From assembly GCA_030697795.1 (NCBI GenBank), contig JAUYOV010000004.1, positions 211,334 to 275,333 on the forward strand: a stretch of 64,000 nucleotides of DNA, given 5' to 3'. Origin of the DNA: a bacterium. GTDB taxonomy: Bacteria > Patescibacteriota > Minisyncoccia > JACQLN01. The notes under the pieces are model-generated. The model ran no database searches and was not told where the DNA came from. It saw only the letters and a program-made list of their open reading frames with translations. The position numbers and the translations under genes are program-made. Position 1 is the stretch's first letter. Every line of letters begins with the position of its first letter. Shown piece after piece: positions 18,713 through 40,547 of this stretch.

Positions 18713-19621
18713 TTAAAAATAGAATAGCAGTTTTTGTTTTATATTAAAACCCTTACAATGCCTCAAAACTCCCAAATACGAATCTACATTTTTCTCATTA
18801 ATCTTTCTTAACATCCTTCTTTTTGTTTTAGTCCTCAAAACCCTATGGTTAGGCAAAACCACATAACCCAGAAAATCTATACCCTGCCTGTATTTACGAA
18901 TAATTATTTTGTCTGGATGCAAAAATAGCTTTAGATTCTCAAAAAGAAAAGTATTAATTTTGTAAGACAGATTTAATAAATAATATTTATTACTTCCTAA
19001 AATAACAAAATCATCGCAGTAACGAATATAATACTTTTCTTTTAAGTTATGTTTAACAAATTGGTCTAATTCGTTTAAATAAATATTGGCAAATAACTGG
19101 CTGGTTACATTGCCTAAGGGTAACCCTTTGTTAAAACTACCTATTATTTTCTCAACCAACCATACAGCATTATCGTCTTTGATCTTTAGTTGAATCAATT
19201 TAATTAGAGCATCTTGATCTATGGAATCAAAAAACTTTTTAATATCACACTTTAAAGCAAAAATAGTTTGGCTATTGTTTTGGCTTAACTTACGACAAAA
19301 AGTTTCTAGTCTTGTTACTGCTTTGTGTGTTCCTTTGCCTATTCGGCAAGAATAAGAATCAAACATAAAATGTCTATCGAATATTGGATATAAAACTCTA
19401 AAAACAGCTTGATGTAAAACCCTGTCGCGTACACAAGCTTTATGGATATGACGCAATTTTGGGTCGGTAACATAAAAAGGAATATACTGGCTGTGTTTAT
19501 ATGTTTTATTTTTTAATTCGCTATGCAGTTGAAACAGATTATCTTCTAGGTTAAAATCAAATTCTTGAACATCCAACCTTTTTCTTTTGCCTTTTTTAAA
19601 TTCGCGCCAAGCTAAAAACAA
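18713..19621 (-). CDS. DGR reverse transcriptase (RT1)
   Basis: Matches DGR RTs along its length. N-terminal LAWREFKKGKR. Motif 4 is LGNVTSQLFANIYL, the I/LGxxxSQ DGR hallmark. YxDD motif is YCDD. Confidence 0.85.
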   Translation of the reverse strand: MFLAWREFKKGKRKRLDVQEFDFNLEDNLFQLHSELKNKTYKHSQYIPFYVTDPKLRHIHKACVRDRVLHQAVFRVLYPIFDRHFMFDSYSCRIGKGTHKAVTRLETFCRKLSQNNSQTIFALKCDIKKFFDSIDQDALIKLIQLKIKDDNAVWLVEKIIGSFNKGLPLGNVTSQLFANIYLNELDQFVKHNLKEKYYIRYCDDFVILGSNKYYLLNLSYKINTFLFENLKLFLHPDKIIIRKYRQGIDFLGYVVLPNHRVLRTKTKRRMLRKINEKNVDSYLGVLRHCKGFNIKQKLLFYF

Positions 19622-20024
19622 GTTTTCTAAGCTAATAATTTTTTTAAAAATATTATGGAAAATTTCTCCATTAAAGCCCCCCCCCTACGGAGTTGAAATA
19701 TCGCTGGTGCATAAAATTTGTGAATTGTATAAATTATTCCACGAATGTTTGAAAATATTTCCCAAGACGGAACGATTTACTTTGGGCCAAAAAATTGAGA
19801 ACACCATTCTAGAAATTTTAGAACTAATCCTTTCAGCCAGTTACCAATCAAAATATGGAAAAAGTGAAACCTTAATAAGAGGTAGCGATAAAAATGACCT
19901 TCTAAAGTATCTTATCCGTCTTGCTCACGATACCAAATCAATCAATATAAAAAAATATCTATTAGTTGAGGAAAAGGTTTTAGAAATAGGTCGTATGTTA
20001 GGTGGCTGGATAAAATCCAACTAA
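19587..20024 (+). CDS. avd: Avd-like accessory variability determinant (four-helix-bundle family); true start probably near 19709-19718
   Basis: Paralogous to the two other Avd-like ORFs and shares the C-terminal IGRMLGGWI motif. Alignment to those paralogs places the N-terminus near VHKICELYK. Confidence 0.7.
   Translation: MPFLNSRQAKNKFSKLIIFLKILWKISPLKPPPYGVEISLVHKICELYKLFHECLKIFPKTERFTLGQKIENTILEILELILSASYQSKYGKSETLIRGSDKNDLLKYLIRLAHDTKSINIKKYLLVEEKVLEIGRMLGGWIKSN
19677..19686. repeat. Homopolymer C10 in the divergent RT1/avd1 promoter region
   Basis: 10 consecutive C, 56 bp upstream of the RT1 start codon and about 25-30 bp upstream of the likely avd1 start. Confidence 0.9.
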
Positions 20025-20055
20025 ACTTTGCAAAGAGCGCCTAAAAAATAAGGCG
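20024..20055 (+). terminator. Intrinsic terminator after avd1 (AGAGCGCC-loop-GGCGCTCT followed by a T-run)
   Basis: 9-bp GC stem and U-tract. Lies between avd1 and TR1. Confidence 0.5.
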
Positions 20056-20180
20056 CTCTTTTGTTTGGAAACTACCAGAGGACGACCAGCTATGTTGTCG
20101 TTGCGATTGCTAGACCAATTGTAGTTGACGTTGGCTAGACCACCGTTCTCACGGTTACCACCGTAAAGCCGGCTGGAGTC
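20054..20180 (-). repeat. DGR template repeat TR1 (AAC-rich on the minus strand)
   Basis: About 127 nt, nearly identical to 20491-20618. All 8 differences are A in TR1 versus C/T/G in VR1. TR1 encodes GGNRENGGLANVNYNWSSNRNDNIAGRPLV. Confidence 0.85.
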
Positions 20181-20431
20181 CTCAAATTTTTGCTTTAAAC
20201 CGTCCATAATCACCGAAAATCTAAATATAAATTTTCTGAAATCCGCATCCCACGGATAGTTTTTTACTCGGCAACTCTTAAATAATCTAAGAATACCCGA
20301 TCTAGTTTAAAGCAAGGAGTTTCGTTATTTCCTGTTTTAAACAGGAGAGTAAATGCGAGAATAAACCTTAGTCTATTCTTCATTAGCTTTACTCAAGGAA
20401 AATTTTACCAAATTTGTGAAAATAAAAAAAT

Positions 20432-20451
20432 CCCCCAACTTACGTTGGGGG
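20432..20451 (-). promoter_or_regulatory. GC-rich hairpin (CCCCCAAC-GTAA-GTTGGGGG) about 40 bp downstream of VR1
   Basis: 8-bp stem with a GNRA-type loop on the target strand. Confidence 0.4.
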
Positions 20452-20486
20452 AAAATCCAAGGGCCAAAGCCCAAGGGGAAAAGAAC

Positions 20487-21320
20487 CTACTTTGCGAAAC
20501 TCACCAGAGGACGACCAGCTATGCTGCCGCTGCGATTGCTAGACCAATCGTAGTTGACGTAGGCTAGACCACCGTACTCACGGTGACCACCGTAAAGCCG
20601 GCTGGAGTCCTCAAACTTATCGTCGAACCACTCCCACATATTGAATCGGCCGCGATTGCTGTCGTAGAGATTGCCAATGGCATTGGACTCTACAGCCCGC
20701 TCCAACCGAACCTGTTCGGGTTTGAAACCGAATGCTTCGGCGATAGCAGGACAAACCACATCTCGCCATTCATCGTTGGTAATGGCAAAACGAGAGCCCG
20801 AAGGAGTATTATCGTGTTTGCCGATTTTTCCTTCTTCGCGCAATTTACTGATGATTAGCGCGAGAGGGTCATTGGAAAATACTTGCGTGCCGTCGGTGTA
20901 ATTCACACCGACGGTGAAATCAGCTAGATACCAACCTCTGTAGAGTTTGGCACTGTCGGGGGCGAGCTTGCCTTCCCCGATTTTCTGGTAGAACCATTTT
21001 TCAGGTTTTACCCAATTCTTGAGCTTGCAATTCTCGCCAATTCCTTCCATCGGCAGATATACCGGCCTGAAGTCGAACCCAGCCCACTTGGCCAAGTTCT
21101 CTTCGGTGAATTCGGGAGGCAGAGGATCAACATCCACACGGAAGAACTTTTGAAGCTTCTTCTGTGTTGCCTCCACTAAAGCTACCAGCAAAGACACTAT
21201 GCGATGTTCGTTGAAAGCTTTAACACTTTCCAAAGTGTGACTGCCGTCATCTATCTGACGGAAAAAATCTTTGAGCACGCCGGACCACGCCGACATCTCA
21301 CCGACTGGGGCATTAGCCAT
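20487..21320 (-). CDS. DGR target protein 1 (FGE/C-type-lectin-like C-terminal variable domain); GC-rich
   Basis: VR1 lies at the C-terminus. The pattern WEWFDD...RLYGG...GRPLV resembles FGE-type CLec folds. Strong SD AGGAGA upstream. Confidence 0.75.
   Translation of the reverse strand: MANAPVGEMSAWSGVLKDFFRQIDDGSHTLESVKAFNEHRIVSLLVALVEATQKKLQKFFRVDVDPLPPEFTEENLAKWAGFDFRPVYLPMEGIGENCKLKNWVKPEKWFYQKIGEGKLAPDSAKLYRGWYLADFTVGVNYTDGTQVFSNDPLALIISKLREEGKIGKHDNTPSGSRFAITNDEWRDVVCPAIAEAFGFKPEQVRLERAVESNAIGNLYDSNRGRFNMWEWFDDKFEDSSRLYGGHREYGGLAYVNYDWSSNRSGSIAGRPLVSFAK
20491..20618 (-). repeat. DGR variable repeat VR1 (3-prime end of target 1)
   Basis: Encodes GGHREYGGLAYVNYDWSSNRSGSIAGRPLV at the C-terminus of the 277-aa ORF. 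Confidence 0.85.
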
Positions 21321-21478
21321 AGCCAGTTTCTCCTGTGATTAAAAGGTTTTAAGAGTACAATTTAGGCTCTATTTGAGCTTGATAACATAATAGCAGTTAT
21401 TGTATCTTGTGTCAAATTGACTTGGTTGTAAACAAACTAAGAATATACTACTATTCAGTTACTAGTCCTTAGGGTTCC

Positions 21479-21511
21479 GAGATCCCGCTCCGTTATGGAG
21501 CGGGATCGAGT
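21479..21511 (-). terminator. Hairpin terminator downstream of glyQS (GATCCCGCTCC-loop-GGAGCGGGATC)
   Basis: 11-bp GC stem 20 bp after the glyQS stop. Confidence 0.5.
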
Positions 21512-21530
21512 CTTTTGTGCGAGATTGTTT

Positions 21531-22931
21531 TTAACTATAAATTTTGTCTGAAAGATAATTTTGTAATTCCGAAATTTTTATTCTTTCTTGTGTAGTGGTA
21601 TCCCTATCCCGAACCGTTACTGTTTCATCTTCCAAAGTTTGAAAATCTACAGTTATACAGTAAGGTGTACCAATTTCATCTTGGCTGTAATAACGTTTAC
21701 CAACATTACCGCGATCATCCCAAGCTACCACAAATTCTTTTTTCAAACCCACATAAACTTTTCTAGCCGCCTCCACAAGTTCTGGTTTATTTTTCATTAA
21801 AGGAAACACCGCAACTTTGTAAGGCGCTATTTTTGGGCTTAATTTTAAAACAGTGCGAGATGAATCAGTATCGTCGTAAGCGCTACATAGAATAGCAAGT
21901 AACGATCTATCTACTCCCCACGTTGGCTCTATAACATGTGGCCAATATTCTTCGCCGCTAGATGTACCATCTCCTTGTTCACGATATTTTAAATTTTGCC
22001 CAGAGCCTTTTTCATGATTTTTTAAATCAAAATCGGTGCGGTAAGCCAAACCATAAAGTTCTTTTCGGCCAAAAGGGAAATCAAATTCAAAATCTATGGT
22101 GCGTTTAGAATAATGAGCCCTGTCTTCGGCTGGAATTTCTATTTCGTGCACGTGTTTTAAATCTATGCCGACATCTTCCATCCAACCTAGCATTTCTTTC
22201 CGCCAATGTTCAAAATTTTCTTGCCAAGTATCTTTTTTAATAAAATATTCAATTTCCATTTGTTCAAATTCGCGCGTTCTAAAAATAAAGTTCCCTGGTG
22301 TAATTTCATTTCTAAAAGCTTTACCAATTTGAGCAATACCAAACGGAATTGTTTTACGGGTTGTATCTAAAACATTTTTAAAGTTAACGAACATGGCTTG
22401 CGCCGTTTCGGGCCGAAAGTAAACCGTATTAGAGCTATCTTCGGCTGGACCAAGAAAAGTTTTTAACATCAAATTAAATTGCTTAGGTTCAGCAAGATTT
22501 CCTCCACAGTTTGAACATTTATTTTTGTTTTGTAATTTGGTATTTGTTTCGGATTTCGAATTTCGTGCTTCGGATTTATCATGTTCATCTACCCTAAACC
22601 TTGAGTGACACTTAACACATTCTGCTAATGGATCGTTAAAATTTGAAAGATGCCCACTAGCCTCCCAAACTTTCGGATTCATTATTAAAGCAGCATCTAA
22701 ACCAACCATATCGTCGCGACCATGCACAAATTTTTTCCACCACAACTGTTTTATATTATTTTTTAATTCCACGCCTAAAGGCCCGTAATCCCAGCTATTA
22801 GCCAAACCACCATAAATTTCGCTCCCAGGATAAACAAATCCTCGGCGCTTACATAAAGATACAATTTTATCTATAGAATCTACCATAAGAATACTATAAC
22901 AATTTGATAGCTTGTGAGCAAAAAAAATCAC
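21531..22931 (-). CDS. glyQS: Glycyl-tRNA synthetase (dimeric GlyQS type) with Cys-rich insertion
   Basis: Class II motifs and the GlyRS N-terminus GFVYPGSEIYGGLANSWDYGPLG. Insertion containing CVKCH...CSNCGG. Confidence 0.9.
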   Translation of the reverse strand: MIFFAHKLSNCYSILMVDSIDKIVSLCKRRGFVYPGSEIYGGLANSWDYGPLGVELKNNIKQLWWKKFVHGRDDMVGLDAALIMNPKVWEASGHLSNFNDPLAECVKCHSRFRVDEHDKSEARNSKSETNTKLQNKNKCSNCGGNLAEPKQFNLMLKTFLGPAEDSSNTVYFRPETAQAMFVNFKNVLDTTRKTIPFGIAQIGKAFRNEITPGNFIFRTREFEQMEIEYFIKKDTWQENFEHWRKEMLGWMEDVGIDLKHVHEIEIPAEDRAHYSKRTIDFEFDFPFGRKELYGLAYRTDFDLKNHEKGSGQNLKYREQGDGTSSGEEYWPHVIEPTWGVDRSLLAILCSAYDDTDSSRTVLKLSPKIAPYKVAVFPLMKNKPELVEAARKVYVGLKKEFVVAWDDRGNVGKRYYSQDEIGTPYCITVDFQTLEDETVTVRDRDTTTQERIKISELQNYLSDKIYS

Positions 22932-22953
22932 CCGATATTCTTTCGGGTGATAG

Positions 22954-23418: not shown

Positions 23419-23458
23419 ATTTCACTCTCCTCTATAAAAAGTACACCGTATAAATTTT

Positions 23459-24114: not shown

Positions 24115-24156
24115 AAGTTTTATTATTGCTTATTATTGCATAGATATGATAAAAAA

Positions 24157-25542: not shown

Positions 25543-25870
25543 ATAGATGAATTGTATCGTAACAAGAGAAAAATATCACGCTAAAGGAATGTTATAATAT
25601 TCATATCCTGCTAATGCAGTTTGAACCATGGTTCAAACTCGCGGGATATCTCATTTTTGCCTTTCCGCCAAAGCTTTACGGGCGGTAAAAGAATCGCCAG
25701 AGTATTAAACCTTACGGGGTTTAATAGCGTGCGAACTAAAATGGAGATGGAACTTCTTGCTTGTTTTTGGTGGAGATTCCGCCAAAGGCGGATGCTCCCA
25801 AGTAAAATTCAGGAAAGAAGAAACATAAATTTCATACTTTCCGGTGATATTGGATGGAAACAAGCAAAAT

Positions 25871-25992
25871 CTTGACTCCGATGGCAACCGCGTTAGCGTC
25901 GGCAACTTCGATCAGAACGGCCTCAACATCAACAACAACTGGGACGATAACCGCAACGACAATCTTGGCCTGGCCTCCTCTCGAACTTCCAT
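25871..25992 (+). repeat. DGR template repeat TR2 (AAC-rich on the plus strand, non-coding location)
   Basis: Matches the reverse complement of 27629-27749. Encodes VGNFDQNGLNINNNWDDNRNDNLGLASSR, versus VR2 VGDFDRFGLYFDYDHDDNRYDSLGLASSR. Confidence 0.75.
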
Positions 25993-26002
25993 CTGCAACC
26001 AT

Positions 26003-26026
26003 AAAACCCTCCTTTAGGAGGGTTTT
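26003..26026. terminator. Bidirectional hairpin AAAACCCTCC-TTTA-GGAGGGTTTT between TR2 and the avd2 stop
   Basis: 10-bp stem flanked by A/T runs on both sides. Confidence 0.5.
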
Positions 26027-26037
26027 ATGGTTTTGCA

Positions 26038-26388
26038 TCAATGAGTTTTTGACGAGCGGATCCAACCGCCTAACATCCGCCCTATCTCATTAACCATTTC
26101 CTGAATTAAAATATATTTTTTATTCTCTAAAACACCAATATCTTTAGCCAAGCGGACATAAACCCTAAAAAGATTGAGCTTAACACTAACTCTTTCTAAG
26201 TATGTTACTCTTTTGAGCTTATCCAAACTGCTTATTTCCAACAAATAGCCCAATATCTCAATCAAAATCAAATTGCATTTCTCGCCTAAAGAATACTTGT
26301 CTTGCTTGGGAAAACCTTTCAAACAAGCATAAAATTCTTTATATAAATCGTAGGTTTTTTTAAATAGCGGAATATCAAAACTATCCAT
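26038..26388 (-). CDS. avd: Avd-like accessory variability determinant (avd2)
   Basis: 116 aa. C-terminus EIGRMLGGWIRS. Paralog of avd1 and avd3. Start diverges from RT2 with a 2-nt overlap. Confidence 0.75.
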   Translation of the reverse strand: MDSFDIPLFKKTYDLYKEFYACLKGFPKQDKYSLGEKCNLILIEILGYLLEISSLDKLKRVTYLERVSVKLNLFRVYVRLAKDIGVLENKKYILIQEMVNEIGRMLGGWIRSSKTH

Positions 26389-27382
26389 GAAAATTTATCA
26401 AAATATATACGAACAAATAATCTCTGCCGAAAATTTGTTTCTAGCTTGGGCAGAATTCAAAAAAGATAAACAAAAAAGAAAAGACGTTATGCAATTTGAA
26501 TACAGGCTGGAAAAAAATATTTTAGGCTTGTGCCAAGAACTAAAAAATCAAACATATAAGCATAGTCCTTATAGTAATTTTTATATAACCGACCCCAAAC
26601 CCAGGCACATTCACAAAGCATTGGTTAGAGACAGAGTGGTGCACCATTCAGTTTTTAATATCCTTAATCCTGTTTTTGAAAAAACTTTTATCTTTAATTC
26701 TTATTCCTGCAGAAAAAACAAAGGCACTCACAAGGGCATAAACCAATTACACAAAATTTTAAGAAAAATAAGCCAAAACAATCATAAACCATGCTTTATA
26801 TTAAAATGCGATATTAAAAAATTCTTTCAATCAGTTAATCACGGTATTTTGTTAAATATTATTGATCGAAAAATATACGATGAAAAAGCATTGGCCTTAA
26901 TTAAAGAAATTGTAGAGAGTTTTAAACCCGGGTTGCCCATAGGCAACCTAACCAGCCAATTATTTGCCAATATTTATTTAAATAATCTGGACCAATATAT
27001 AAAGCACCATTTAAAAATTCCCTTTTATATAAGATATACCGATGATTTTGTGATTATTTATAACGATTTGGAAAAACTAAAACAGTGGCTTAGCCAGATT
27101 CAGGAATTTTTAAATGTAAACCTAAAACTACGTCTGCATCCCAATAAAGTTATTCTGCGCAAATATCATCAAGGAACTGATTTTTTGGGCTATGTGCAAT
27201 TTCCCCATTATTGTATTTTGCGCCCTAGAACCGAAAGAAGAATAATGAAAAGGATACAGCAGGGAGTTTCTGAACAATCGCTAAATTCATATCTAGGTGT
27301 GCTTTCTCATGCTAATAGTTATAAATTATCGGAAAAAATCAAAAACTTGTTTTGGTTTAATAAAAAAGAAAACCCGTCTTGA
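26387..27382 (+). CDS. DGR reverse transcriptase (RT2)
   Basis: IGNLTSQLFANIYLN (SQ motif); IRYTDDFV. Matches RT1 and RT3 along its length. Confidence 0.85.
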   Translation: MKIYQNIYEQIISAENLFLAWAEFKKDKQKRKDVMQFEYRLEKNILGLCQELKNQTYKHSPYSNFYITDPKPRHIHKALVRDRVVHHSVFNILNPVFEKTFIFNSYSCRKNKGTHKGINQLHKILRKISQNNHKPCFILKCDIKKFFQSVNHGILLNIIDRKIYDEKALALIKEIVESFKPGLPIGNLTSQLFANIYLNNLDQYIKHHLKIPFYIRYTDDFVIIYNDLEKLKQWLSQIQEFLNVNLKLRLHPNKVILRKYHQGTDFLGYVQFPHYCILRPRTERRIMKRIQQGVSEQSLNSYLGVLSHANSYKLSEKIKNLFWFNKKENPS

Positions 27383-27463: not shown

Positions 27464-27567
27464 AATTGGAACTCTCTTTCATTATAAATTTAGTATAACA
27501 TAATTGGTTATAAAAAATTGAACCCTCGGATTTTCCGAAGGTTCAAGAAACAAAATTCAAAAGCCTG

Positions 27568-27597
27568 CCCCGCACCGAGCTACGCTCTGGTGCGGGG
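27568..27597 (-). promoter_or_regulatory. GC-rich hairpin (CCCCGCACC...GGTGCGGGG) about 30 bp downstream of VR2
   Basis: 9-bp perfect GC stem. Position is analogous to the hairpins after VR1 and VR3. Confidence 0.4.
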
Positions 27598-27622: not shown

Positions 27623-28396
27623 CTATTTGGAACTTCGAGAGGAGGCCAGGCCAAGACTGTCGTAGCGGTTATCGTCATGGTCGTAGTCGAAGTAGAGGCC
27701 GAACCGATCGAAATCGCCGACGCCAACGCGGCTGCCATCGGAGTCAAGAGACGAAGTTCGGACATAGGTGTGTTCGAACAGTCGCTCACCAGTAGCCATG
27801 AAGTGGCCAATGATGGCGTAGACCACCACTTGCGCCTTCGGTGTTTCCTCGTCTTTGCCGAGTAGCTTCTGCTGATCATCCCAAGTCTTGGACGTGGAAT
27901 CCATAACCGGAGTTTTGCGGACGAGATGCCATCCGACTTCGCCCTTGTATTTGGCAAAAGTCTCCTTGTTGTACCAATCCTGTTCATAAAACAGGCGCTG
28001 ACCGTTGTTAGCGACCTTGCCTCGGATGTCCAGGATTGAGAGAGGAAAAATGGCGACAAGGGTATGCGTGTCTCTTGCCTCGGTAAGCTCGGCTTCAGTG
28101 AACGGAACTTCGGCCAAAGCCGAGATCTGCGCTCGCGTGGGCTTTACACCGAGATACTGAATCGCTTCCTCTACCCCAAACATGTTGCGCCCCATTATCT
28201 GATGGGCCGTTTTCTGCGAAGTGGTGGCTTCATAGCCGCCGTTGCTGATAAGCCTAACCACTTTCGTGGCAAGGTCATTGCCCTTGGAGCCTATGACTCT
28301 CTGGGCAAGTTCATCGTTGAGGCCAGCGGCCTCAAGTTTTAGGAGCACTTCATGCTCTTTGTGCACCGACAGAGTACGGCTCACGATGGTTTCCAT
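27623..28396 (-). CDS. DGR target protein 2 (C-terminal variable domain); GC-rich
   Basis: 257 aa. VR2 at the C-terminus. Strong SD GGAGGT upstream. Confidence 0.75.
   Translation of the reverse strand: METIVSRTLSVHKEHEVLLKLEAAGLNDELAQRVIGSKGNDLATKVVRLISNGGYEATTSQKTAHQIMGRNMFGVEEAIQYLGVKPTRAQISALAEVPFTEAELTEARDTHTLVAIFPLSILDIRGKVANNGQRLFYEQDWYNKETFAKYKGEVGWHLVRKTPVMDSTSKTWDDQQKLLGKDEETPKAQVVVYAIIGHFMATGERLFEHTYVRTSSLDSDGSRVGVGDFDRFGLYFDYDHDDNRYDSLGLASSRSSK
27629..27749 (-). repeat. DGR variable repeat VR2 (3-prime end of target 2)
   Basis: See TR2. About 13 mismatches at TR adenines. In addition, one codon differs at all three positions (TGG in TR, CAT in VR) and there is one C/T difference. 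Confidence 0.75.
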
Positions 28397-32229: not shown

Positions 32230-32243
32230 CTTATTTACAACAT

Positions 32244-32267: not shown

Positions 32268-32447
32268 CTGTTATTAGCCGATTCTTATTAGTTTAATCCG
32301 TTCTTGATTTAATTTTACCGCAACTTTCCCACTCCTGTAAAATATTTTTATAACCTTATAGAAACATGAAATTATCTGCACTTGAATTATATCGGTTGTG
32401 GATAACTTTCGGTTAATTTTCGGTATTGAAAATAGTATAATTAAGTT

Positions 32448-33794
32448 ATGAATAATCTAACTCCTAGGCAAAAACAAATCCTTGATTTTGTAACTAAATA
32501 TAGCAATAAGAAAGGCTATGCTCCTTCCCATAAAGAAATCGGGAAATATTTTAAACTTACTTCCTCTGCCACCATTAATGAGCACCTAGATGCCATTGCA
32601 AGTAAGGGTTATATAAATAAAGAAAAACATCAAAAAAGAAATATAGAAATTAAATCTTTAGAAACATTGGTTTCCGTACCCCTTGTTGGAACCATCACGG
32701 CTGGTGAACCAATAGAAACATATGAAATCCCAGAAAAAATATCAGTACCAAAAAACCTTTTATCTCAACAGGGTGAACACTTTGCTTTAACAGTTAATGG
32801 TAATAGTATGATTGGCGAAGGAATTTTTAGTGGAGATACAGTGATTGTTCGTAAGCAAGATACTGCAAAAGACGGAGATAGTATAGTTGCACTTATAAAT
32901 GGAAGTGAAACAACATTAAAAAAGATATATAAAGAAAAAAATGGCTTTAGGCTTCAACCAGCTAATCCAGAACTCAAACCAATATTTGTAAAACAACTTG
33001 AAATACAAGGCAGGGTTATAAGTGTCATTCGTAATCTAGAAACCTTAGTAAATAAAATTAACTGTGGCGATGTTTTGGAAACAATTAAAAAAATACCAGA
33101 AAGTTCAGTACACCTAGCAATAACTTCCCCGCCATATAACGTTGGAAAAAGCTATGATAATCATAACGATAAAATGGAGTATTCTGACTATCTTGATTGG
33201 TTGTATAAAGTTTGGCAGGAAACAAAAAGAGTTTTAGTTCCTGGTGGAAGATTTGCTATAAATATTGCTCCAACTGGTATAAAAGATTTTGTACCAATAC
33301 ATCACGATTTTATAGCTCAACTCAGGAAACTCGGAATGAAATTTCGAACAGAAATTATATGGTACAAACAAACAATGCTAAAACGAACTGCGTGGGGAAG
33401 TTTTAAAAGCCCAGCCAACCCACATATTGTTCCGTCTTGGGAATATGTTTTGATTTTCTCTAAAGATCAAGATCGTTTAGATGGAGATAGTAAAATGGCT
33501 GATATTACCAAAGATGAGTTTATGAAATTTTCCGATGGATTTTGGCAGATTTGGCCAGAAAGACAAAGAAAAGGACATCCAGCTCCATTTCCCGAAGATT
33601 TAATATATAGATTAGTAAAATTCTATTCCTATAAAGATAGTACTATTTTGGATATGTTTGGAGGAACAGGCACAGTAGCAACTGTAGCCGCCAAAACTGG
33701 TAGAAATTTTATACACATAGATGTTTCTCCTCAATACTGTAAAATCGCTAAAGACAGACTAGAAAAAGAAATTAACCAAGGAAAGTTAGTTTAA
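32448..33794 (+). CDS. Fusion protein: LexA-like repressor (wHTH plus S24 self-cleaving peptidase) fused to a beta-class amino (N4/N6) DNA methyltransferase
   Basis: Residues 1-200 match LexA (HTH; Ser in VNGNSM; catalytic Lys in TLKKI; C-terminal QGRVISVIR). Residues 200-448 carry MTase motif IV SPPY (LAITSPPYNVGKSYD) and an AdoMet motif (DMFGGTGT). Confidence 0.7.
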   Translation: MNNLTPRQKQILDFVTKYSNKKGYAPSHKEIGKYFKLTSSATINEHLDAIASKGYINKEKHQKRNIEIKSLETLVSVPLVGTITAGEPIETYEIPEKISVPKNLLSQQGEHFALTVNGNSMIGEGIFSGDTVIVRKQDTAKDGDSIVALINGSETTLKKIYKEKNGFRLQPANPELKPIFVKQLEIQGRVISVIRNLETLVNKINCGDVLETIKKIPESSVHLAITSPPYNVGKSYDNHNDKMEYSDYLDWLYKVWQETKRVLVPGGRFAINIAPTGIKDFVPIHHDFIAQLRKLGMKFRTEIIWYKQTMLKRTAWGSFKSPANPHIVPSWEYVLIFSKDQDRLDGDSKMADITKDEFMKFSDGFWQIWPERQRKGHPAPFPEDLIYRLVKFYSYKDSTILDMFGGTGTVATVAAKTGRNFIHIDVSPQYCKIAKDRLEKEINQGKLV

Positions 33795-34364
33795 TTTGTT
33801 TGAATACCAATTAACAAGGTCTTTGGCTAAACTACTTAATGCTTTTAACTTGCCTCCTAATTTAGTTTTGTTGTTTTCAATATATATTCCGTCTGTATAA
33901 TGGGAACCTAGTTGTCTATCTTTTGTTGGACTTTCTTCACTACCCCATTCTGACTGCCAAGACCGCCCACTTTGCTGTCTTCCTTTGTCAGGAGTAGAGA
34001 AAACAAATTTTAAACTTGGAATCATATCTTTTAAAACAACAGCATAAAATAATGATTCTGAAAGTCTTCCGTGTAAACTAGTTTTACAACTTATAATTGC
34101 AACGGGATTGTTGTTTCCATCAACTACAACAAGATCTATATCGCCCCAAATTCTTTGATTAGAATTAATTTTGCCAACGGGAATACTAAGTTTTTTCCAT
34201 AAACTACTATCATTTCTAGCATCATCACCTCTTATGACTTTTAATTTAGATTTAAGAGAAATCAAATCTTGATTTACTTTATCTCTGACAAAATGCTCCC
34301 AAGCTCTACCGCTTTTTTGGACATATCTTTGTCTTTGACTATTTGTTTCGTAGTTATTAGGCAT
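33786..34364 (-). CDS. Putative PD-(D/E)xK restriction endonuclease, convergent with and overlapping the methyltransferase by 9 nt
   Basis: Core GDIDLVVVDGNNNPVAIISCKTS fits the D...(D/E)xK pattern. 192 aa. Confidence 0.4.
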   Translation of the reverse strand: MPNNYETNSQRQRYVQKSGRAWEHFVRDKVNQDLISLKSKLKVIRGDDARNDSSLWKKLSIPVGKINSNQRIWGDIDLVVVDGNNNPVAIISCKTSLHGRLSESLFYAVVLKDMIPSLKFVFSTPDKGRQQSGRSWQSEWGSEESPTKDRQLGSHYTDGIYIENNKTKLGGKLKALSSLAKDLVNWYSNKLN

Positions 34365-34370
34365 ATTATT

Positions 34371-37300
34371 TTAAATATTTTTAATCCCCACCCCGATTTC
34401 AAATCCTTCATAATTCCAAACTTTGTGGACCAAGAAATTTTCGTGTTCGGTTATGCCAAAGTTAATTTGTGTAGAACGAGTTTCGGCTTTTATAACTTGT
34501 TCCCAACGAGTTAATAATTCTTTAAAGTTGGCGTTTTGGTTAAGTTCGTAATGTAAAATTATTTTATCTTCTGGTGTTAATTTGGCTTCTTTTCGCATTT
34601 CGTTTATATTGCGAATCATTTCACGAACCATTCCTTCTTCCTTAAGCTCCGCCGTAAGTTCGGTATCCAAATTAACGTTGTTCTTTTCTATTTTTCTATC
34701 ACTTAAAACTTTTTTAACATTGAGTTCTTCGGCAACTATATATAGAACATCGCCAATTAAATTGTAATCAGCCGGTGAAACATATAAAGCATTTAAGGGC
34801 TGGCGTACGCGCAAACCCGCTTGAGCGCGCTCGGCAAGCCCCAGCGCCACAATTTCGCGGGCTCTATCCATGACTTTCGTAATATCGGAAGCCTTAACAG
34901 TTTTGGTATTTGGCCATTTTTCCAAATGAACCGACTCCCCAAACGCCGATAAACGCCGATTTTTATCCGCGCTGATCCGCGCTGATCCTTGCGTTAATCC
35001 GCGTAATTCTTGATAGAGCCATTCCGATATAAACGGCGCAAATGGCCCCATAACAACAGATACGCGTTTTAAAACTTCGGTTAAAGTATTTTGAGCCGAT
35101 AGTTTTTCGGCATCTATATTTTGCTTTTGGAACTTACGGCGGCTACGGCGTATATACCAATTAGAAAGTTCGTCTATAAAAGCTTCTATAGCACGCGAAG
35201 CGGAAGTAATGTCGTAGCTTTCTAAAAATTTATTTACTTCGAACTCCAACATTTCTGTTTTAATCAAAACCCATTTATCTAAAATATCTGTTTTGGCTAG
35301 TAAAGATTTCGGAGCTTCGGTGTAATAAGTTTCTAAAAACAAAAACGAATTAATTAAAGTATCGGCGAATCTACGTTTTTTAGATTCTATATCGCGCAAA
35401 CTAAAAAGTTTATTATCGCCCGGCGCGTTTACAGTGTAAAAATACCAACGCATCATATCGAACCCAACTTTCTCACCCACCAGCCAAGGGTCTACAATGT
35501 TCCCTTTAGACTTCGACATCTTCTCGCCCTTTTCATCTAGAACATGGTTTAAACTAATTACATTCTTATACGGATTACCTTCGCCTAAAGCGGTAGATAC
35601 CGCCATTAAAGTATAAAACCAGCCCCGGGTTTGATCGATCGCTTCGCAAATATAATCTGCTGGAAAATGGTCTTTCGGTAAATTTTTATTTTTTATATTT
35701 AAATTTTTCTTGTCCTTCGAAGCCTTGCTGTGCCACTCCGTAGCTTTGAGCGAAGGGTGGGCGTAGGAGGAAACTTGAGACGCCCACGGCATTGCACCCG
35801 AATCAAACCAAACATCGGCCAAGTCTTTTATACGTTCCATCTTCGAGGAACACATAGAACACTTAAGGAACACGCTATCGGCATAGGGGCGATGCAGGTT
35901 TAAATTGCCTTCTTCATCGTGGGGCCAGTTATTTGTTTCTACAAAAGTAAATTCGGCAGGGGACAAAGCTAGTTTAGAATCTTTAACTGCGTTTTGATAC
36001 AAAAGTTTTGTTTCGTCTTCGCCATAAATTCCATTAGATAATTGCATTAAAAATAAGGGGTCCATATGGCTTACCACAACCACCTTCTTGCCAGCGTGTT
36101 CTCTAGAAACATCCATCATAAATTCGCGCACCCGTTTGGCCACATCCAACCACGATTCGCCTGCCGGCGCGGGGCGAATAAATTTATCTTTAAAAGAATT
36201 AAAATATTTTTCATATTCCAAAAATGGCCCGCCATTAAACTCGCCAGTGTTTATTTCGCGTAAGCGTTCATCAAAAATTACTTCTTTTATTTTAAGTTCG
36301 TCCGCCAATATTTGAGCCGTCTCTCTGGCTCTTAATAGATCCGATGAATATATGGCCGATACCTTATTAGCCGCCAAAAGTTTTTTTATATTTTGGGCGG
36401 ATGCCTCTGCTTGTTTTCTACCCTTTTCGGTTAGGGGGTTTAAAATCTTTTCAGGGTAAGCACTGCAAATACCTTTAGCGTTAGATTCTGCTTCGCCATG
36501 GCGCATTAAAATTAAAGTGGTTGGAGAATCTAGGCGGTGTTCGTTAAGCTCGGCTAAAGAACCAATAACAGTTTTGTGTTCGCATTTGGTGCATGCCCAA
36601 ATTGGCAAGGGTGTTCCCCAATAGCGTTCGCGGCTTATAGCCCAGTCTTTAACCTCGCGTAACCATTCGCCAAACCGGCCATCTTTAATGTGTTCGGGCA
36701 CCCAATTAACTTTTTCGTTATTTTTAATTAGATCGTTTCTTAACGCCGACATTTTTATAAACCAACTTTCTTGGGCGTAATATAGTAAGGGCGATTTACA
36801 CCTCCAGCAAAAAGGATATTCGTGCTTATAGCTTGACTCATTAAACAGCAAATTTTGTTTTTTTAAGTAAAACAAAATCGTTTTTTCGGTTATGGGGTCT
36901 TTTTTGTTTTCACTAACAACAGCAAGCCCGCCTACTATAGGAACAGATTTTACAAAAACTCCTTCACGATTAACCGTGTGGAATTTAGGCAAATTTAATT
37001 TGGAACCGAGTTCAAAATCGTCGACGCCATACATTACGGCTGTATGCACAATGCCCGTACCATCTGCGGTAGTTACAAAATCGGCTTCGTAAACTCTGTA
37101 CGAATTTTCGGATTCCAACTCTTTAACAGCAAAAAGTGGTTCGTAAGAAAGTCTAGTAAGCTCGCTAGAAGTTAGTTCTTTATTTATTTTGTATTCTACT
37201 TTAGCCTCGCCAAAAACTTTAGGCGCTAAATCGCGAGCCAAAATATATTTTTCACCATTAGCTTCGACTTCTACATAGGTAACTTTCGGGCCAACAGCTA

Positions 37301-38003
37301 ACGCAACATTTCCCGGTAACGTCCAAGGCGTCGTGGTCCAAGCCAAAAGAAAAGTGTTTTCTCCGCCAGCTGGCGGATTTTTAACTTTAAATTTTATTAT
37401 GACCGACTTATCTGTAACTGTTTCGTAACCCTGCGCCACTTCGTGGCTGGAGATGGGCGTACCACACCTAACACAAAAAGGCACAACTTTATAATCTTTA
37501 ACTAAAAGTTTTTTATCGTAAATTCTTTTTATAATATTCCACAAACTTTCTATGTATTGCGGTTCGTAGGTTATGTATGGGTTTTTAAGGTCGAGCCAGT
37601 AACCCATGCGGCGCGTTAGCTTTTCCCATTCATCTTTATACTGCCAGACTGATATTTGGCATTCTTTATTAAATTGAGCGATGCCGTATTTTTCTACTTC
37701 GCGCTTATTTTTTAAACCTAATTTTTTTTCGACTTCAATTTCTACCGGCAAACCGTGTGTATCCCAACCAGCCCGACGCAAAACATAGCGCCCTTTCATT
37801 GTTTGAAAACGGCAAACAATATCTTTAAACGATCTAGCTAAAACATGATGGAGCCCTGGTTTACCGTTGGCCGTAGGCGGGCCTTCGTAAAATACGAAAG
37901 GTTTACCATCTTTAGTGGCTTTTAAAGTCTTTTCAAAAACATCGTTATCGTGCCAATGTTTTAAAACTTTTTCTTCTTCTTGGGGTAAATCAACGTGACG
38001 CAT
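34371..38003 (-). CDS. ileS: Isoleucyl-tRNA synthetase with an inserted histidine-phosphatase (PGAM-like) domain and repeat-derived in-frame inserts
   Basis: HIGH-type motif PPTANGKPGLHHV; KMSKS; editing domain. The insert LILMRHGEAESN...VVVSHMD (RHG and second His motifs) sits between WACTKCEH and LHRPYAD. Confidence 0.9.
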   Translation of the reverse strand: MRHVDLPQEEEKVLKHWHDNDVFEKTLKATKDGKPFVFYEGPPTANGKPGLHHVLARSFKDIVCRFQTMKGRYVLRRAGWDTHGLPVEIEVEKKLGLKNKREVEKYGIAQFNKECQISVWQYKDEWEKLTRRMGYWLDLKNPYITYEPQYIESLWNIIKRIYDKKLLVKDYKVVPFCVRCGTPISSHEVAQGYETVTDKSVIIKFKVKNPPAGGENTFLLAWTTTPWTLPGNVALAVGPKVTYVEVEANGEKYILARDLAPKVFGEAKVEYKINKELTSSELTRLSYEPLFAVKELESENSYRVYEADFVTTADGTGIVHTAVMYGVDDFELGSKLNLPKFHTVNREGVFVKSVPIVGGLAVVSENKKDPITEKTILFYLKKQNLLFNESSYKHEYPFCWRCKSPLLYYAQESWFIKMSALRNDLIKNNEKVNWVPEHIKDGRFGEWLREVKDWAISRERYWGTPLPIWACTKCEHKTVIGSLAELNEHRLDSPTTLILMRHGEAESNAKGICSAYPEKILNPLTEKGRKQAEASAQNIKKLLAANKVSAIYSSDLLRARETAQILADELKIKEVIFDERLREINTGEFNGGPFLEYEKYFNSFKDKFIRPAPAGESWLDVAKRVREFMMDVSREHAGKKVVVVSHMDPLFLMQLSNGIYGEDETKLLYQNAVKDSKLALSPAEFTFVETNNWPHDEEGNLNLHRPYADSVFLKCSMCSSKMERIKDLADVWFDSGAMPWASQVSSYAHPSLKATEWHSKASKDKKNLNIKNKNLPKDHFPADYICEAIDQTRGWFYTLMAVSTALGEGNPYKNVISLNHVLDEKGEKMSKSKGNIVDPWLVGEKVGFDMMRWYFYTVNAPGDNKLFSLRDIESKKRRFADTLINSFLFLETYYTEAPKSLLAKTDILDKWVLIKTEMLEFEVNKFLESYDITSASRAIEAFIDELSNWYIRRSRRKFQKQNIDAEKLSAQNTLTEVLKRVSVVMGPFAPFISEWLYQELRGLTQGSARISADKNRRLSAFGESVHLEKWPNTKTVKASDITKVMDRAREIVALGLAERAQAGLRVRQPLNALYVSPADYNLIGDVLYIVAEELNVKKVLSDRKIEKNNVNLDTELTAELKEEGMVREMIRNINEMRKEAKLTPEDKIILHYELNQNANFKELLTRWEQVIKAETRSTQINFGITEHENFLVHKVWNYEGFEIGVGIKNI
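34941..35009. repeat. ATCCGCG-unit repeat in frame inside ileS
   Basis: AAACGCCGATAAACGCCGAT...ATCCGCGCTGATCCGCGCTGATCC..TAATCCGCG. Confidence 0.7.
35714..35770. repeat. Small palindromic repeat family, copy in frame inside ileS
   Basis: CCTTCGAAGCC...CCGTAGCTTTGAGCGAAGGGTGGGCGTAGGAGG. Confidence 0.7.
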
Positions 38004-38022
38004 AGTGATTTAAATATATCAT

Positions 38023-39018
38023 TTAAGCTAGCGGAAAATAAGACATTAGTAAAATATCGGTAATTCCATAAGTATTCCCATGCTTCAACAACCCCAAATA
38101 AGAACTTACCGTTTCTGGCTCTGGGTTCTCTCCAATTCTTTTCATCATCCGTTTTTTAGTAACTGTTCTTAAAACTTTATGATCTGTAAAATGAACCCAA
38201 CCCAAAAAATCCGCACCCGAAGCTAGAGTTTTGATAAAAACTTTGTCGGGGTGGAGTGTGAGTTTGAGATTTTTAATTAAAAATTCTTGAATCTTTGGGA
38301 TTAAGTTCTCTAACCATTCTTTGTCTTGCGATAAAACCACAAAATCATCGGGGTATCTAATGTAATACTTAACTTTTAATTTATGTTTAACAAACTGGTC
38401 AAACTTGTTCATATAGATATTCACCAAAAGCTGGGAGGTTAAATTGCCCAAGGGCAAACCAATATTGGGTTTTGTTTTAAAACTGGACACAACATTATTG
38501 AGTAACCAAATAATATTTTTGTCTGGTATATATTCAGTTAGTATCTCTAGCAAAACTTTGTGATGAATACTGGAAAAGAATTTTTTAATGTCGCATTTTA
38601 AGACCCAGCAAGTTTTAGTGTTATTTTGACCAACTTTGTAAGCAAAAGACTGAAAACGATTCAGGGCTTTATGCGTGCCTTTGTTCTTTCGGCAAGAAAA
38701 AGAATCGGCTATGAATGTTTTATCAAAGAAAGGGTAAAGAATATGATAAATTGCGTGGTGAAGTAGCCTATCCCGAACTGTGGCTTTATGTATGTTTCGG
38801 GGTTTGGGGTCGGAAATATTGAAAGCTTGGTAAATGCCATGCCGATAAGTGAAATTGACCAAGTCTTGGTTAAGTTGAAAAATATTATCCATTAAATTAA
38901 AGCCAAATTCCTGCACATCTTTTCTTTTTCTCTTGCCTTTGATAAACTCCTGCCAAGCCAATAACAAATTATCAACGCTAATAACATCTTCAAAACTATG
39001 GATCAATTGAGTTTTCAT
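38023..39018 (-). CDS. DGR reverse transcriptase (RT3)
   Basis: LGNLTSQLLVNIYMN (SQ motif); IRYPDDFV. Paralog of RT1 and RT2. Confidence 0.85.
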   Translation of the reverse strand: MKTQLIHSFEDVISVDNLLLAWQEFIKGKRKRKDVQEFGFNLMDNIFQLNQDLVNFTYRHGIYQAFNISDPKPRNIHKATVRDRLLHHAIYHILYPFFDKTFIADSFSCRKNKGTHKALNRFQSFAYKVGQNNTKTCWVLKCDIKKFFSSIHHKVLLEILTEYIPDKNIIWLLNNVVSSFKTKPNIGLPLGNLTSQLLVNIYMNKFDQFVKHKLKVKYYIRYPDDFVVLSQDKEWLENLIPKIQEFLIKNLKLTLHPDKVFIKTLASGADFLGWVHFTDHKVLRTVTKKRMMKRIGENPEPETVSSYLGLLKHGNTYGITDILLMSYFPLA

Positions 39019-39035
39019 AATTCTACATTAAGTAA

Positions 39036-39046
39036 CCCCCCCCCCC
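39036..39046. repeat. Homopolymer C11 in the 53-bp divergent RT3/avd3 intergenic region
   Basis: 11 consecutive C. A similar C10 tract at 19677-19686 sits between RT1 and avd1. Confidence 0.9.
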
Positions 39047-39071
39047 GAGACTTCCACCGCTGATTGATAAA

Positions 39072-39443
39072 ATGAAAAATCTCTATTTTATCTGGTTTCA
39101 ATACTACCAGATTTTACCCAAAGCGCATCGCTACACGCTTGGCCGCAGAATTGACTCTATGTTTATTGAAATAGTTGAAGCGATAGTTACAGCGTCTTTT
39201 CTAACGCAAGAAAAGAAGCTCCCGTTTGTTCAGCACGCCCTTCGCAAAACAGACACGCTTAAAATCCTATTACAAGTATTATGGGAAACTAAATCTTTAG
39301 ATGATAAAAAATATATAGCCGTATCAAAACCTTTAGAAGAAATCGGCAAAATGCTGGGTGGCTGGAATGGCCAGCTTCAAAAACCCCTCGACATAGCTCG
39401 GGATAAAGAAAACTCTCCCCACAAAAAGCAGAGAGAGAAATAA
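39072..39443 (+). CDS. avd: Avd-like accessory variability determinant (avd3)
   Basis: 123 aa. C-terminal EEIGKMLGGW motif. Confidence 0.75.
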   Translation: MKNLYFIWFQYYQILPKAHRYTLGRRIDSMFIEIVEAIVTASFLTQEKKLPFVQHALRKTDTLKILLQVLWETKSLDDKKYIAVSKPLEEIGKMLGGWNGQLQKPLDIARDKENSPHKKQREK

Positions 39444-39447
39444 AGAA

Positions 39448-39573
39448 AGTTGCGAGCACGGCCGAAGGATTGTTGGCATTCCAGTCGTTCTCAAGCCAGT
39501 TGTAGTTCCAGTCCCACTCACCATCGTTCCAGTAGAGATAAAGAACGTTGCGGTTGCCATTCGGACTGCGAAT
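39448..39573 (-). repeat. DGR template repeat TR3
   Basis: Encodes RSPNGNRNVLYLYWNDGEWDWNYNWLENDWNANNPSAVLA. Begins 5 nt after the avd3 stop. Confidence 0.85.
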
Positions 39574-39824
39574 ATATTGTATAAAGCGCCACCTATGCCA
39601 CCACCCCTTGAATACTCTTAGGGTTGTATCGTATTTGGTATCTAAAATACCCTAGCGCTATATACCGAGTATCTTCATTTTTTTAAGCTTCCATAAACCA
39701 CCCTATTCCCAACCGTAATCGGGAATACTCTCGATTTATGGTTACTGGCTTCGGTAGCAGGCAACCTTAATCGCCCGCGTATTCACCTAATACCATTTGC
39801 ATAATAACATTTTGCAAAAGAAAA

Positions 39825-39851
39825 TTCCCTACGACATTACGTCGTAGGGAA
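39825..39851 (-). promoter_or_regulatory. Hairpin TTCCCTACGAC-loop-GTCGTAGGGAA about 54 bp downstream of VR3
   Basis: 11-bp stem. Confidence 0.4.
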
Positions 39852-39902
39852 TTTAGAGTACAAAGTCCAAAGGATCTAAAAGTTCTAGAATTCTAAGGAC
39901 TA

Positions 39903-40547
39903 TTAACTCGCGAGCACGGCCGAAGGATCGTAGGCACTCCAGCCGCCCTCAAGCCAGCGGCAGTACCAGCCCCACCCACCACCGCCCCAGCAGAGACAAA
40001 GAACGTAGCGGCGGCCAAGCGGACCGCGAAGGGTGGTGCCGTCAAAGGAAATGAAGGTGGTATTGCTGTTCGTTTTTTCTTTCCAACTTTCGGGAATAAG
40101 ACTCTTGTTTTCCCAGAGAGTTTGGAAGATTTTGGCATCTAGGCGGACGTAATTTTTGGCTTTGAGGCGCTTCAGTTTCTCTTCACCTTTGATGACACTC
40201 TCGTCTTCTTTGAGGCAAGTGACTAACTGGATGTTGGAGAGGTCTAGCTCGGTGAGGTTGAGAGAGCGCTCATCCTGTTCTTCCTCGCCCGAGAGACCAT
40301 CGCCATCTGCTGGACCTTTCCAGATGCTCCAACCTTCGCCCAAAAACTGGGCGGGGTTGAAGGGTTGGGTGCGGTTGATTTTTAAGACCGTATCTCCAAA
40401 ACGCCCCTCCACCGCATTCTGCAAATAGCGTTGGAGTTTTGCCGGATCGTAGGGATAACCCTTGGGCTGACGAAGCTGTCGGCCAATTTCAAAAAGCTGG
40501 CCAGTGATGCTTTCGTACAGTTCGCCTGCGACACTAGGATGTGCCAT
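39903..40547 (-). CDS. DGR target protein 3 (C-terminal variable domain); GC-rich
   Basis: 214 aa. VR3 at the C-terminus. Confidence 0.8.
   Translation of the reverse strand: MAHPSVAGELYESITGQLFEIGRQLRQPKGYPYDPAKLQRYLQNAVEGRFGDTVLKINRTQPFNPAQFLGEGWSIWKGPADGDGLSGEEEQDERSLNLTELDLSNIQLVTCLKEDESVIKGEEKLKRLKAKNYVRLDAKIFQTLWENKSLIPESWKEKTNSNTTFISFDGTTLRGPLGRRYVLCLCWGGGGWGWYCRWLEGGWSAYDPSAVLAS
39905..40030 (-). repeat. DGR variable repeat VR3 (3-prime end of target 3)
   Basis: Encodes RGPLGRRYVLCLCWGGGGWGWYCRWLEGGWSAYDPSAVLA. 24 substitutions relative to TR3, all at TR adenines. Confidence 0.85.

Follow-up and report, generated by a model that had tools for sequence, protein, structure and literature searches.

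The DNA analyzed here, a 64,000-nt stretch of contig JAUYOV010000004.1 (referred to as the window), carries three diversity-generating retroelement (DGR) cassettes within ~22 kb (positions 18713 to 40547), here named DGR1, DGR2, and DGR3. Each of them consists of a reverse transcriptase (RT) gene, a gene for a divergent accessory variability determinant (Avd), a template repeat (TR) of 116 to 126 nt, and a single variable repeat (VR) in the 3′-terminal part of a target gene (Table 1). The gene order is the same in all three cassettes, with the TR being followed by avd on the opposite strand and then by the RT gene, an arrangement that corresponds to architecture B3 as defined by Wu et al. DGR2 is exceptional in one respect: its target gene is convergent with the RT gene, and VR2 is on the strand opposite TR2 and RT2. 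Taking the evidence together, we consider it very probable that the interval contains three separate DGRs of the type found in the candidate phyla radiation (CPR)/Patescibacteria, with one target per cassette. A first-pass annotation of this DNA had proposed three DGRs at this position, and this proposal is borne out by the finding of an RT, an Avd, and an adenine-biased TR/VR pair in every cassette.

Table 1. Features of the three DGR cassettes and their surroundings (positions within the window; ORF, open reading frame; aa, amino acids; CM, covariance model)
Feature	Position	Strand	Description
RT1 (DGR1)	18713-19621	-	RVT_1 E 2e-20; 8ub7_A E 2.8e-45; motifs LGNVTSQ, YCDD
RT2 (DGR2)	26387-27382	+	8ub7_A E 6.8e-48; motifs IGNLTSQ, YTDD
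RT3 (DGR3)	38023-39018	-	8ub7_A E 2.2e-37; motifs LGNLTSQ, YPDD
Avd1	19707-20024 (ORF open from 19587)	+	DivGenRetAVD 82.5 bits; Pfam bAvd 75.6
Avd2	26038-26388	-	DivGenRetAVD 85.7 bits
Avd3	39072-39443	+	Pfam bAvd 43.5 (cutoff 40); DivGenRetAVD 61.8
TR1	20074-20189	-	116 nt, 30 adenines
VR1	20503-20618	-	differs from TR1 at 8 positions, each of them a TR adenine
TR2	25870-25991	+	122 nt, 32 adenines; conserved in related locus L002
VR2	27628-27749	-	inverted relative to TR2; of 18 mismatches, 13 lie at A and the other 5 at non-A
TR3	39447-39572	-	126 nt, 31 adenines
VR3	39905-40030	-	25 mismatches, 24 at TR adenines
Target 1 (T1)	20487-21320	-	277 aa; CPR-only orphan family, 202 homologues, no Pfam match
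Target 2 (T2)	27623-28396	-	257 aa; highly conserved CPR-only orphan family, 762 homologues, no Pfam match
Target 3 (T3)	39903-40547	-	214 aa; CPR-only orphan family, 609 homologues, no Pfam match
Structured RNA element 5′ of TR1	20182-20278	-	CM R1 35.9 bits, E 5e-5; sequence in training set
Structured RNA element 5′ of TR2	25791-25875	+	CM R1 57.2 bits; P1 helix covariation
Structured RNA element 5′ of TR3	39571-39645	-	CM R1 60.1 bits
Stem-loop 3′ of TR1	20032-20061	-	12 nt past TR1; 11-bp stem; between convergent TR1 and avd1
Stem-loop 3′ of TR2	25997-26032	+	5 nt past TR2; 16-bp stem; region z-score -7.9
Stem-loop and U-run 3′ of TR3	39413-39437	-	9 nt past TR3; antisense inside avd3 3′ coding tail
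Hairpin after target 1	20431-20452	-	terminator-like
Hairpin downstream of VR2	27568-27597	-	GC-rich
Hairpin downstream of VR2	27518-27546	-	terminator-like
Hairpin after target 3	39822-39854	-	terminator-like

Judged by sequence homology, the three RTs belong to the DGR lineage. All of them match Pfam RVT_1, and the motifs quoted in the first-pass annotation were verified (LGNVTSQLFANIY and YCDD in RT1, IGNLTSQLFANIY and YTDD in RT2, and LGNLTSQLLVNIY and YPDD in RT3). In a search of the PDB, the best solved-structure match of each RT was 8ub7_A (132 to 167 bits), a chain that tblastn matched to brt of Bordetella phage BPP-1 with 100% identity. The homology to bRT spans the full length of the proteins, including the N-terminal extension (E of 1e-37 to 1e-48). 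Group II intron RTs rank next in the PDB (66 to 79 bits; E of 1e-17 to 1e-21), the defense RTs Drt2 and Drt3a score below 35 bits, and the lead of bRT over the next solved RT relatives amounts to ~60 to 90 bits.

Each RT gene adjoins its own avd gene, which is carried on the opposite strand, and all three Avd proteins score above the Pfam bAvd cutoff. The presence of an Avd-like gene beside each RT gene had been noted before; the additional statement that each Avd ends in IGRMLGGW does not hold for Avd3, which reads IGKMLGGW and continues for 25 further residues. From an alignment with Avd2, the start codon of Avd1 is probably the GTG at position 19707. The Avds share 29 to 44% identity with one another and the RTs 51 to 54%, and on account of these values, the cassettes are, by sequence, either paralogues of long standing or members of one clade that were acquired separately, and not recent duplicates. 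As a separate observation, the start codons of avd2 (minus strand) and RT2 (plus strand) overlap in the sequence CATG (26386 to 26389), so that each promoter must sit inside the other gene or farther upstream. This overlap is consistent with translation of the RT from a long transcript that runs through the TR, the antisense strand of avd, and the RT gene.

When the ungapped TR/VR alignments were tabulated by TR base, as the first-pass annotation had recommended, mismatches fell at template adenines in 8 of 8 cases in DGR1, 13 of 18 in DGR2, and 24 of 25 in DGR3, leaving 0, 5, and 1 mismatches, respectively, at other bases (Fisher P values of 9e-6, 1e-5, and 1.5e-18). In DGR1, 8/30 template adenines were changed and none of the 86 non-A positions, and in DGR3, 24/31 adenines were changed. 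The claim that the VRs differ almost only where the template has an A is thus accurate for DGR1 and DGR3 and too strong for DGR2, with its five non-adenine mismatches; the repeats, given as about 125 nt, measure 116, 122, and 126 nt. When the entire window was scanned with tolerance for changes at adenines, a single VR was found for each TR. The TRs are intergenic and adjoin the avd and RT genes, and the VRs end 2 to 16 nt ahead of the target stop codon in all three cassettes. Each TR contains 6 to 9 AAC codons and 19 to 21 adenine-containing codons, and with ~19 to 21 variable C-terminal codons, the theoretical repertoire is ~10^16 to 10^18 protein variants per target.

These data also bear on the alternative that the RTs are of another class (group II intron, retron, or defense-associated RT [DRT]) and that the repeats are incidental duplications of gene fragments, an explanation that we regard as extremely improbable. 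In NCBIfam, which has no DGR RT model, the best model for the window RTs is that of the group II intron RT/maturase (TIGR04416; 145 to 149 bits); there are weaker matches to Drt3a (62 to 80 bits), Drt2 (44 to 60 bits), retron St85 (58 to 62 bits), and AbiA, and many RT models were listed by PADLOC. However, these scores are far under the respective cutoffs of 300, 200, 390, 235, and 250 bits, and the 132 to 167 bits obtained with bRT compare with 66 to 79 bits for group II intron RTs of solved structure and 58 to 62 bits for St85. The grouping with group II intron or retron RTs that had been named as evidence against a DGR is therefore not seen in the scores. Group II intron RTs and maturases are the nearest non-DGR relatives and share the N-terminal extension and the palm and fingers motifs with the window RTs, but the latter have no intron RNA, maturase X domain, or endonuclease domain and are accompanied by Avd and a TR/VR pair. 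No Rfam group II intron was detected in the window, either at the gathering score or at an E of ≤5, nor did Rfam assign the cassettes to another RNA family. The lead of bRT among the solved relatives, the occurrence of Avd in all three cassettes, and an adenine bias with P values down to 1.5e-18, which is not expected from plain duplication, likewise speak for DGRs. An identity as a retron, DRT, or AbiA system was considered and rejected on the basis of scores below the family cutoffs and of neighbors that are Avd and TR/VR rather than msr/msd or effectors.

To place the cassettes among known DGRs, GTDB species genomes were scanned with the RT alignment. At least 514 relatives were found, and 80 loci were retained. 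All of these are from uncultivated genomes, nearly all of them metagenome-assembled genomes (MAGs), and most are labeled CPR/Patescibacteria; the few that are labeled otherwise, for instance, "uncultured Gammaproteobacteria" or "uncultured archaeon," were taken to be automated mislabels. Of 83 related RT genes, 77 were directly preceded by an avd gene that runs in the opposite direction. For the repeats, 64 related cassettes were surveyed together with the three from the window. In all 67 cassettes, the TR was located just upstream of the antisense avd, and 1,224 of 1,332 TR/VR mismatches were at TR adenines. Of the 67 VRs, 61 were upstream and on the same strand, like VR1 and VR3, and the remaining 6 were downstream and convergent, like VR2.

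The properties of the window cassettes are those described for CPR DGRs. Enrichment of DGRs in CPR genomes, the TR-(avd)-RT architecture, and targets lacking known domains have all been published (PMC5758913 and PMC8144416). Wu et al. reported in 2018 that B3 accounts for 90% of their CPR DGR set (PMC5758913), and Roux et al. described in 2021 a DGR clade restricted to Patescibacteria (clade 2), the targets of which typically lack transmembrane or conserved domains (PMC8144416). In the window, too, the order is TR-(avd)-RT and avd is reversed; the cassettes occupy chromosomal sites in a small genome, their TR/VR pairs are adenine-biased, their targets are small and without a transmembrane segment or a recognizable domain, and the closest relatives of their RTs are all from CPR MAGs. 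No categorical difference from CPR DGRs was found. What is uncommon is the presence of three cassettes in 22 kb, each with a different orphan target family: a second RT gene was found in the fetched flanks (~10 kb) of only 2 of the 80 related loci, and according to Wu et al., ~10% of the DGR-bearing complete genomes have several DGRs, with a maximum of five (PMC5758913). The locus thus comprises further, typical members of a published CPR DGR clade and architecture, although so tight a grouping with three mutually unrelated orphan targets is not common.

The 3′ boundary of the repeats resembles that of the Bordetella element. Each TR/VR pair ends in an adenine-free, GC-rich stretch of 17 to 20 nt, beyond which the TR reads ACTT and the VR AGTT in DGR2 and DGR3, with an indel at this position in DGR1. 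The ACTT/AGTT difference between TR and VR is conserved in the related locus L002. On sequence grounds, this boundary is similar to the initiation of mutagenic homing (IMH)/IMH* pair of the Bordetella element, and a corresponding function is predicted.

A structured RNA element was identified on the 5′ side of each TR. Its consensus consists of AAUAAAAUACAG, a 5-bp helix around a variable insert, and the motifs YRGUG, GAUGG, and GCAA. The helix was paired in 86.8% of cells, compared with 50.1% in shuffled sequences (0/500 shuffles reached as high a value), and the covariation score was 0.91, compared with 0.27 for shuffles and 0.17 to 0.32 for slid controls. Within the window, the covariance model matched only the three TR-proximal sites, with the next match scoring 16 bits. 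Among 22 loci outside the training set, it recovered six sites, all of which were on the RT strand and ~550 to 650 nt upstream of the RT gene. Examples of the element in related loci are L075:185-259, L045:115-189, and L037:341-416. No matching Rfam family was found. By analogy, this non-coding leader plausibly takes over the role of the upstream element of BPP-1, avd being inverted and downstream here. A "cPRT-stop"-like duplex across the TR flanks was also considered and dropped, as the RNAduplex energies did not improve on those of shuffled sequences (mean z of -0.15), and no covariation of the anchored motifs with the antisense of the Avd GGW codons was convincing on inspection.

On the 3′ side, each TR is followed by a stem-loop with a stem of 10 to 16 bp. 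In 59 of the 67 cassettes, compared with 17.7 in shuffles, the TR was followed by a perfect stem of ≥7 bp; the median start of this stem was 12 nt past the TR, and it was often trailed by a U-run. Handa et al. predicted an Avd-binding stem-loop just 3′ of the TR in 207 of 278 Avd-containing DGRs, including those of CPR bacteria (bioRxiv 10.1101/2023.10.23.563531). The stem-loops described here probably correspond to it, to judge by their position, and may double as bidirectional terminators. Further hairpins are found 35 to 60 nt downstream of each VR.

A comparison with the BPP-1 DGR (mtd-avd-TR-brt) reveals shared and divergent features. Features found in both are RT homology over the full length, the IGxxxSQ motif, Avd, adenine mutagenesis, an IMH-like end rich in GC, and, downstream of the TR, a stem-loop that is bound by Avd in cryo-electron microscopy work on BPP-1. 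BPP-1 requires RNA flanking the TR on both sides, and the window cassettes carry elements on both sides of the TR. However, in BPP-1, avd precedes the TR on the same strand, and the upstream RNA element is made up of the 3′ codons of avd, whereas avd in the window is downstream and inverted and the leader is non-coding; the region after the TR is antisense to avd, unlike in BPP-1. The targets differ as well, with Mtd being a C-type lectin of the phage tail fiber and the window targets being chromosomally encoded orphans without a predicted signal peptide or transmembrane segment.

In light of this, we propose that each cassette works as follows. An RNA would be made that contains the conserved 5′ structured leader, the TR, and the 3′ stem-loop, all of which are seen in the sequence. 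The RT, bound to Avd, would reverse transcribe the TR and misincorporate nucleotides opposite template adenines, as suggested by homology to the Bordetella bRT-Avd complex, and the cDNA would replace its counterpart, the 3′-terminal VR in the target gene of the same cassette. Replacement of the VR would be directed by the A-free, GC-rich IMH-like 3′ end and the TR/VR-specific difference that follows it, two features that are present in the repeats. Each cassette would serve one target.

The three target proteins are 100% identical to the NCBI MAG proteins Q8Q95_02295, Q8Q95_02340, and Q8Q95_02395, and all of their named homologues are from Patescibacteria/CPR. No member of the three families had a meaningful Pfam match, including to the formylglycine-generating enzyme (FGE)-sulfatase and DUF1566 models; profile searches of the PDB yielded no sequence relatives of the targets, and PADLOC had no match for them. 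Profile comparison showed that the three families are mutually unrelated, with only a weak match between the C termini of T1 and T2 (E of 8.5e-4; probability of 24%). None of the targets has a hydrophobic stretch that would suit a signal peptide or a transmembrane helix (maximum 19-residue Kyte-Doolittle mean of ≤1.11). Roux et al. stated the function of the targets of Patescibacteria-clade DGRs as an open question (PMC8144416). In addition, a paralogue of T3 with 77% identity, P0003 (NCBI Q8Q95_00765), is encoded on another contig (56 kb) of the same MAG and differs from T3 in the VR region by one inserted residue. Its sequence suggests that the DGR targets or cassettes of this genome number four or more.

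The target genes are GC-rich, as had been pointed out in the first-pass annotation. Their GC content is 0.50 to 0.535 along the whole gene length, compared with 0.38 for the window and 0.30 to 0.39 for the RT and avd genes, and their GC content at third codon positions (GC3) outside the VR is 0.55 to 0.62, compared with 0.26 to 0.37 for the neighboring genes and the RT genes. The same holds across the clade: in 57 cassettes, the mean GC3 was 0.58 for the target body and 0.35 for the RT gene, with the target being higher in 54, and the excess stops at about the boundary of the target gene. Since the excess occurs in three unrelated target families and is absent from the RT and avd genes of the same cassettes, simple horizontal transfer of the cassettes does not explain it. 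One could envisage that the targets and their CPR homologues are intracellular hypervariable binding proteins on scaffolds other than the C-type lectin fold and that the GC enrichment is a footprint of homing, for instance, of GC-biased repair around replaced VRs; we consider this combined proposal speculative and unlikely to be correct as it stands.

Diversification of the target families was surveyed in clusters of homologues with at least 90% identity drawn from many metagenomes. The fractions of variable columns that fell in the last 45 residues were 16/16 and 18/29 in T1 family clusters, 23/31 and 23/37, among others, in T2 family clusters, and 21/24 and 17/21 in T3 family clusters, with up to eight residue types per variable column. 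This concentration at the C terminus points indirectly, at the level of the families, to diversification of the targets in nature. DGR3 looks recently active, as does DGR1 judging from its repeats.

Several observations weigh against the conclusion that the interval holds three separate CPR-type DGRs. Avd3, at 61.8 bits, is under the NCBIfam DivGenRetAVD equivalog cutoff of 80 bits and passes the Pfam bAvd model alone. The C-type lectin fold of VR domains was not recovered: the AlphaFold2 model of T3 (predicted local distance difference test [pLDDT] score of 87.6) had no significant match to any solved structure, with Foldseek E values of ≥1.4 and scattered lectin domains at template modeling (TM) scores of 0.34 to 0.39, and the model of T2 is poor in the VR (pLDDT of <35). 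Promoter scans around all three cassettes gave results at chance level, and the TR transcript is one that we infer. Each of the three window targets is a single-member cluster in the protein collection, JGI proteins included. Furthermore, VR2 has five non-adenine differences, one of which falls at the IMH-like boundary and three of which are adjacent, changing TGG in TR2 (25933 to 25935) to CAT in VR2 (27680 to 27690) and thereby Trp to His. Finally, the RT1 ORF begins at a TTG (19621), but DGR RT homology runs 17 codons farther upstream, to ~19672; these codons align with bRT residues 4 to 20 and include no in-frame ATG, GTG, or TTG. An ATG preceded by a G-run is found at ~19668; a seeming duplication of GA puts it out of frame. 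A slippery heptamer, U_UUA_AAA, follows 20 nt downstream of this ATG, and a -1 shift on it could restore the RT1 frame; otherwise, translation would start at the TTG. The description of the cassettes as complete is hence correct insofar as all parts are present and has to be qualified for the compromised start of RT1 and for the changes in VR2, which are outside the reach of mutagenic homing.

The last two points raise the question of whether DGR2, and possibly DGR1, are decaying or inactive relics, with only DGR3 being fully functional. Full homing would have erased the 5 of 18 mismatches in VR2 that are at non-adenines, including the TGG-to-CAT change, and in the closest relative, L002, TR and VR alike have TGG. 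VR2 is moreover assembled cleanly and with 100% identity in an independent 1.1-kb Logan contig (L082; run SRR13727529), in which the exact T1 and T3 proteins have no record, and its differences are therefore not an artefact of the MAG. Together, these findings are signs that DGR2 has drifted since the last complete homing event. On the other hand, RT2 and Avd2 are both intact, none of their motifs being missing, and several relatives with intact cassettes likewise show a few non-A mismatches. For DGR1, the missing in-frame canonical start at the homologous N terminus of RT1 is set against the two possible starts described above and against repeats in which all 8 differences are at adenines and 0/86 non-A positions are changed, as expected after recent homing. 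Overall, the relic scenario appears doubtful to us, although of the alternatives considered here it is the one with the best claim to attention.

The cassettes are embedded in a neighborhood of housekeeping genes. Around and between them are genes for methionyl-tRNA synthetase (MetRS), an AI-2E transporter, an M16 peptidase, glycyl-tRNA synthetase (GlyRS), a Nudix protein, an aspartyl protease, a DUF11 protein, RecO, a PMT-type glycosyltransferase, a YgjP-like peptidase, a LexA-methylase fusion together with a BsaWI-like endonuclease, isoleucyl-tRNA synthetase (IleRS), SmpB, transfer-messenger RNA (tmRNA), IF3, and L20. The location among aminoacyl-tRNA synthetase genes reported by the first-pass annotation was confirmed with MetRS, GlyRS, and IleRS; its suggestion of a dedicated hypervariation island was not upheld. 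That the 22 kb represent a horizontally acquired, mobile or phage-derived island is very unlikely in our view. The proximity of the three cassettes, the atypical GC content of the targets (0.50 to 0.535 versus 0.38), and a restriction-modification (R-M) pair inside the interval would be in line with such an origin. However, no integrase, transposase, or phage genes were found in the window and no tRNA gene at the interval borders, the intervening genes are core housekeeping genes, and the RT and avd genes are as AT-rich as the genome or more so, with only the targets being GC-rich, and this throughout the clade. Relatives hold one DGR at corresponding syntenic positions. L002, with the order GlyRS-DUF11-(avd)-RT-T2-RecO-PMT, is orthologous to the DGR2 locus; the order (avd)-RT-IleRS of DGR3 recurs in L057; in L052, a DGR is located beside GlyRS-M16-AI2E-MetRS, with IleRS and SmpB nearby; in L036, a DGR lies between IleRS and SmpB; and L025 likewise combines the housekeeping synteny with a DGR at a corresponding position. 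L001, a relative of the T1 locus, has low coverage and is split by frameshifts and was left out of this comparison. By gene order, the cassettes have long resided in a housekeeping neighborhood that is conserved among relatives, with three present here and one per ~20 kb in relatives.

With regard to their significance, the cassettes enlarge the known clade of CPR DGRs by three well-formed examples and leave the general picture of DGRs unchanged. Three RT-Avd-TR sets, with RTs that are 51 to 54% identical, and three unrelated targets in one cell constitute a natural test case for orthogonality, that is, for the question of which RNA elements hold each RT to its own TR and VR. The covarying 5′ RNA, the 3′ stem-loop, and the GC-rich targets provide leads on the inverted-avd architecture and on the role of CPR DGR targets.

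Some of the neighboring genes have unusual features of their own. The IleRS (34371 to 38003, minus strand; 1,210 aa) has a histidine phosphatase domain (His_Phos_1, PGM-like) with an RHG motif inserted at residues 497 to 650 (E of 5e-35). The protein encoded at 32448 to 33794 (plus strand) is LexA-like, with a DNA-binding domain and an S24 peptidase, and is fused to an N6/N4 DNA methylase; its gene adjoins that of the BsaWI-like restriction endonuclease (33786 to 34364, minus strand). An unrelated CPR contig has a similar S24-methylase fusion next to fragments of MvaI/BcnI-like nucleases (L001:1547-2212 and L001:3001-3818), and these sequences suggest that a LexA/S24-methylase with a nuclease is a recurrent, possibly SOS-linked R-M arrangement. 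Lastly, a stand-alone ORF of 90 aa for a GIY-YIG nuclease domain (41747 to 42019, plus strand) is located between the tmRNA gene (41262 to 41623) and infC.

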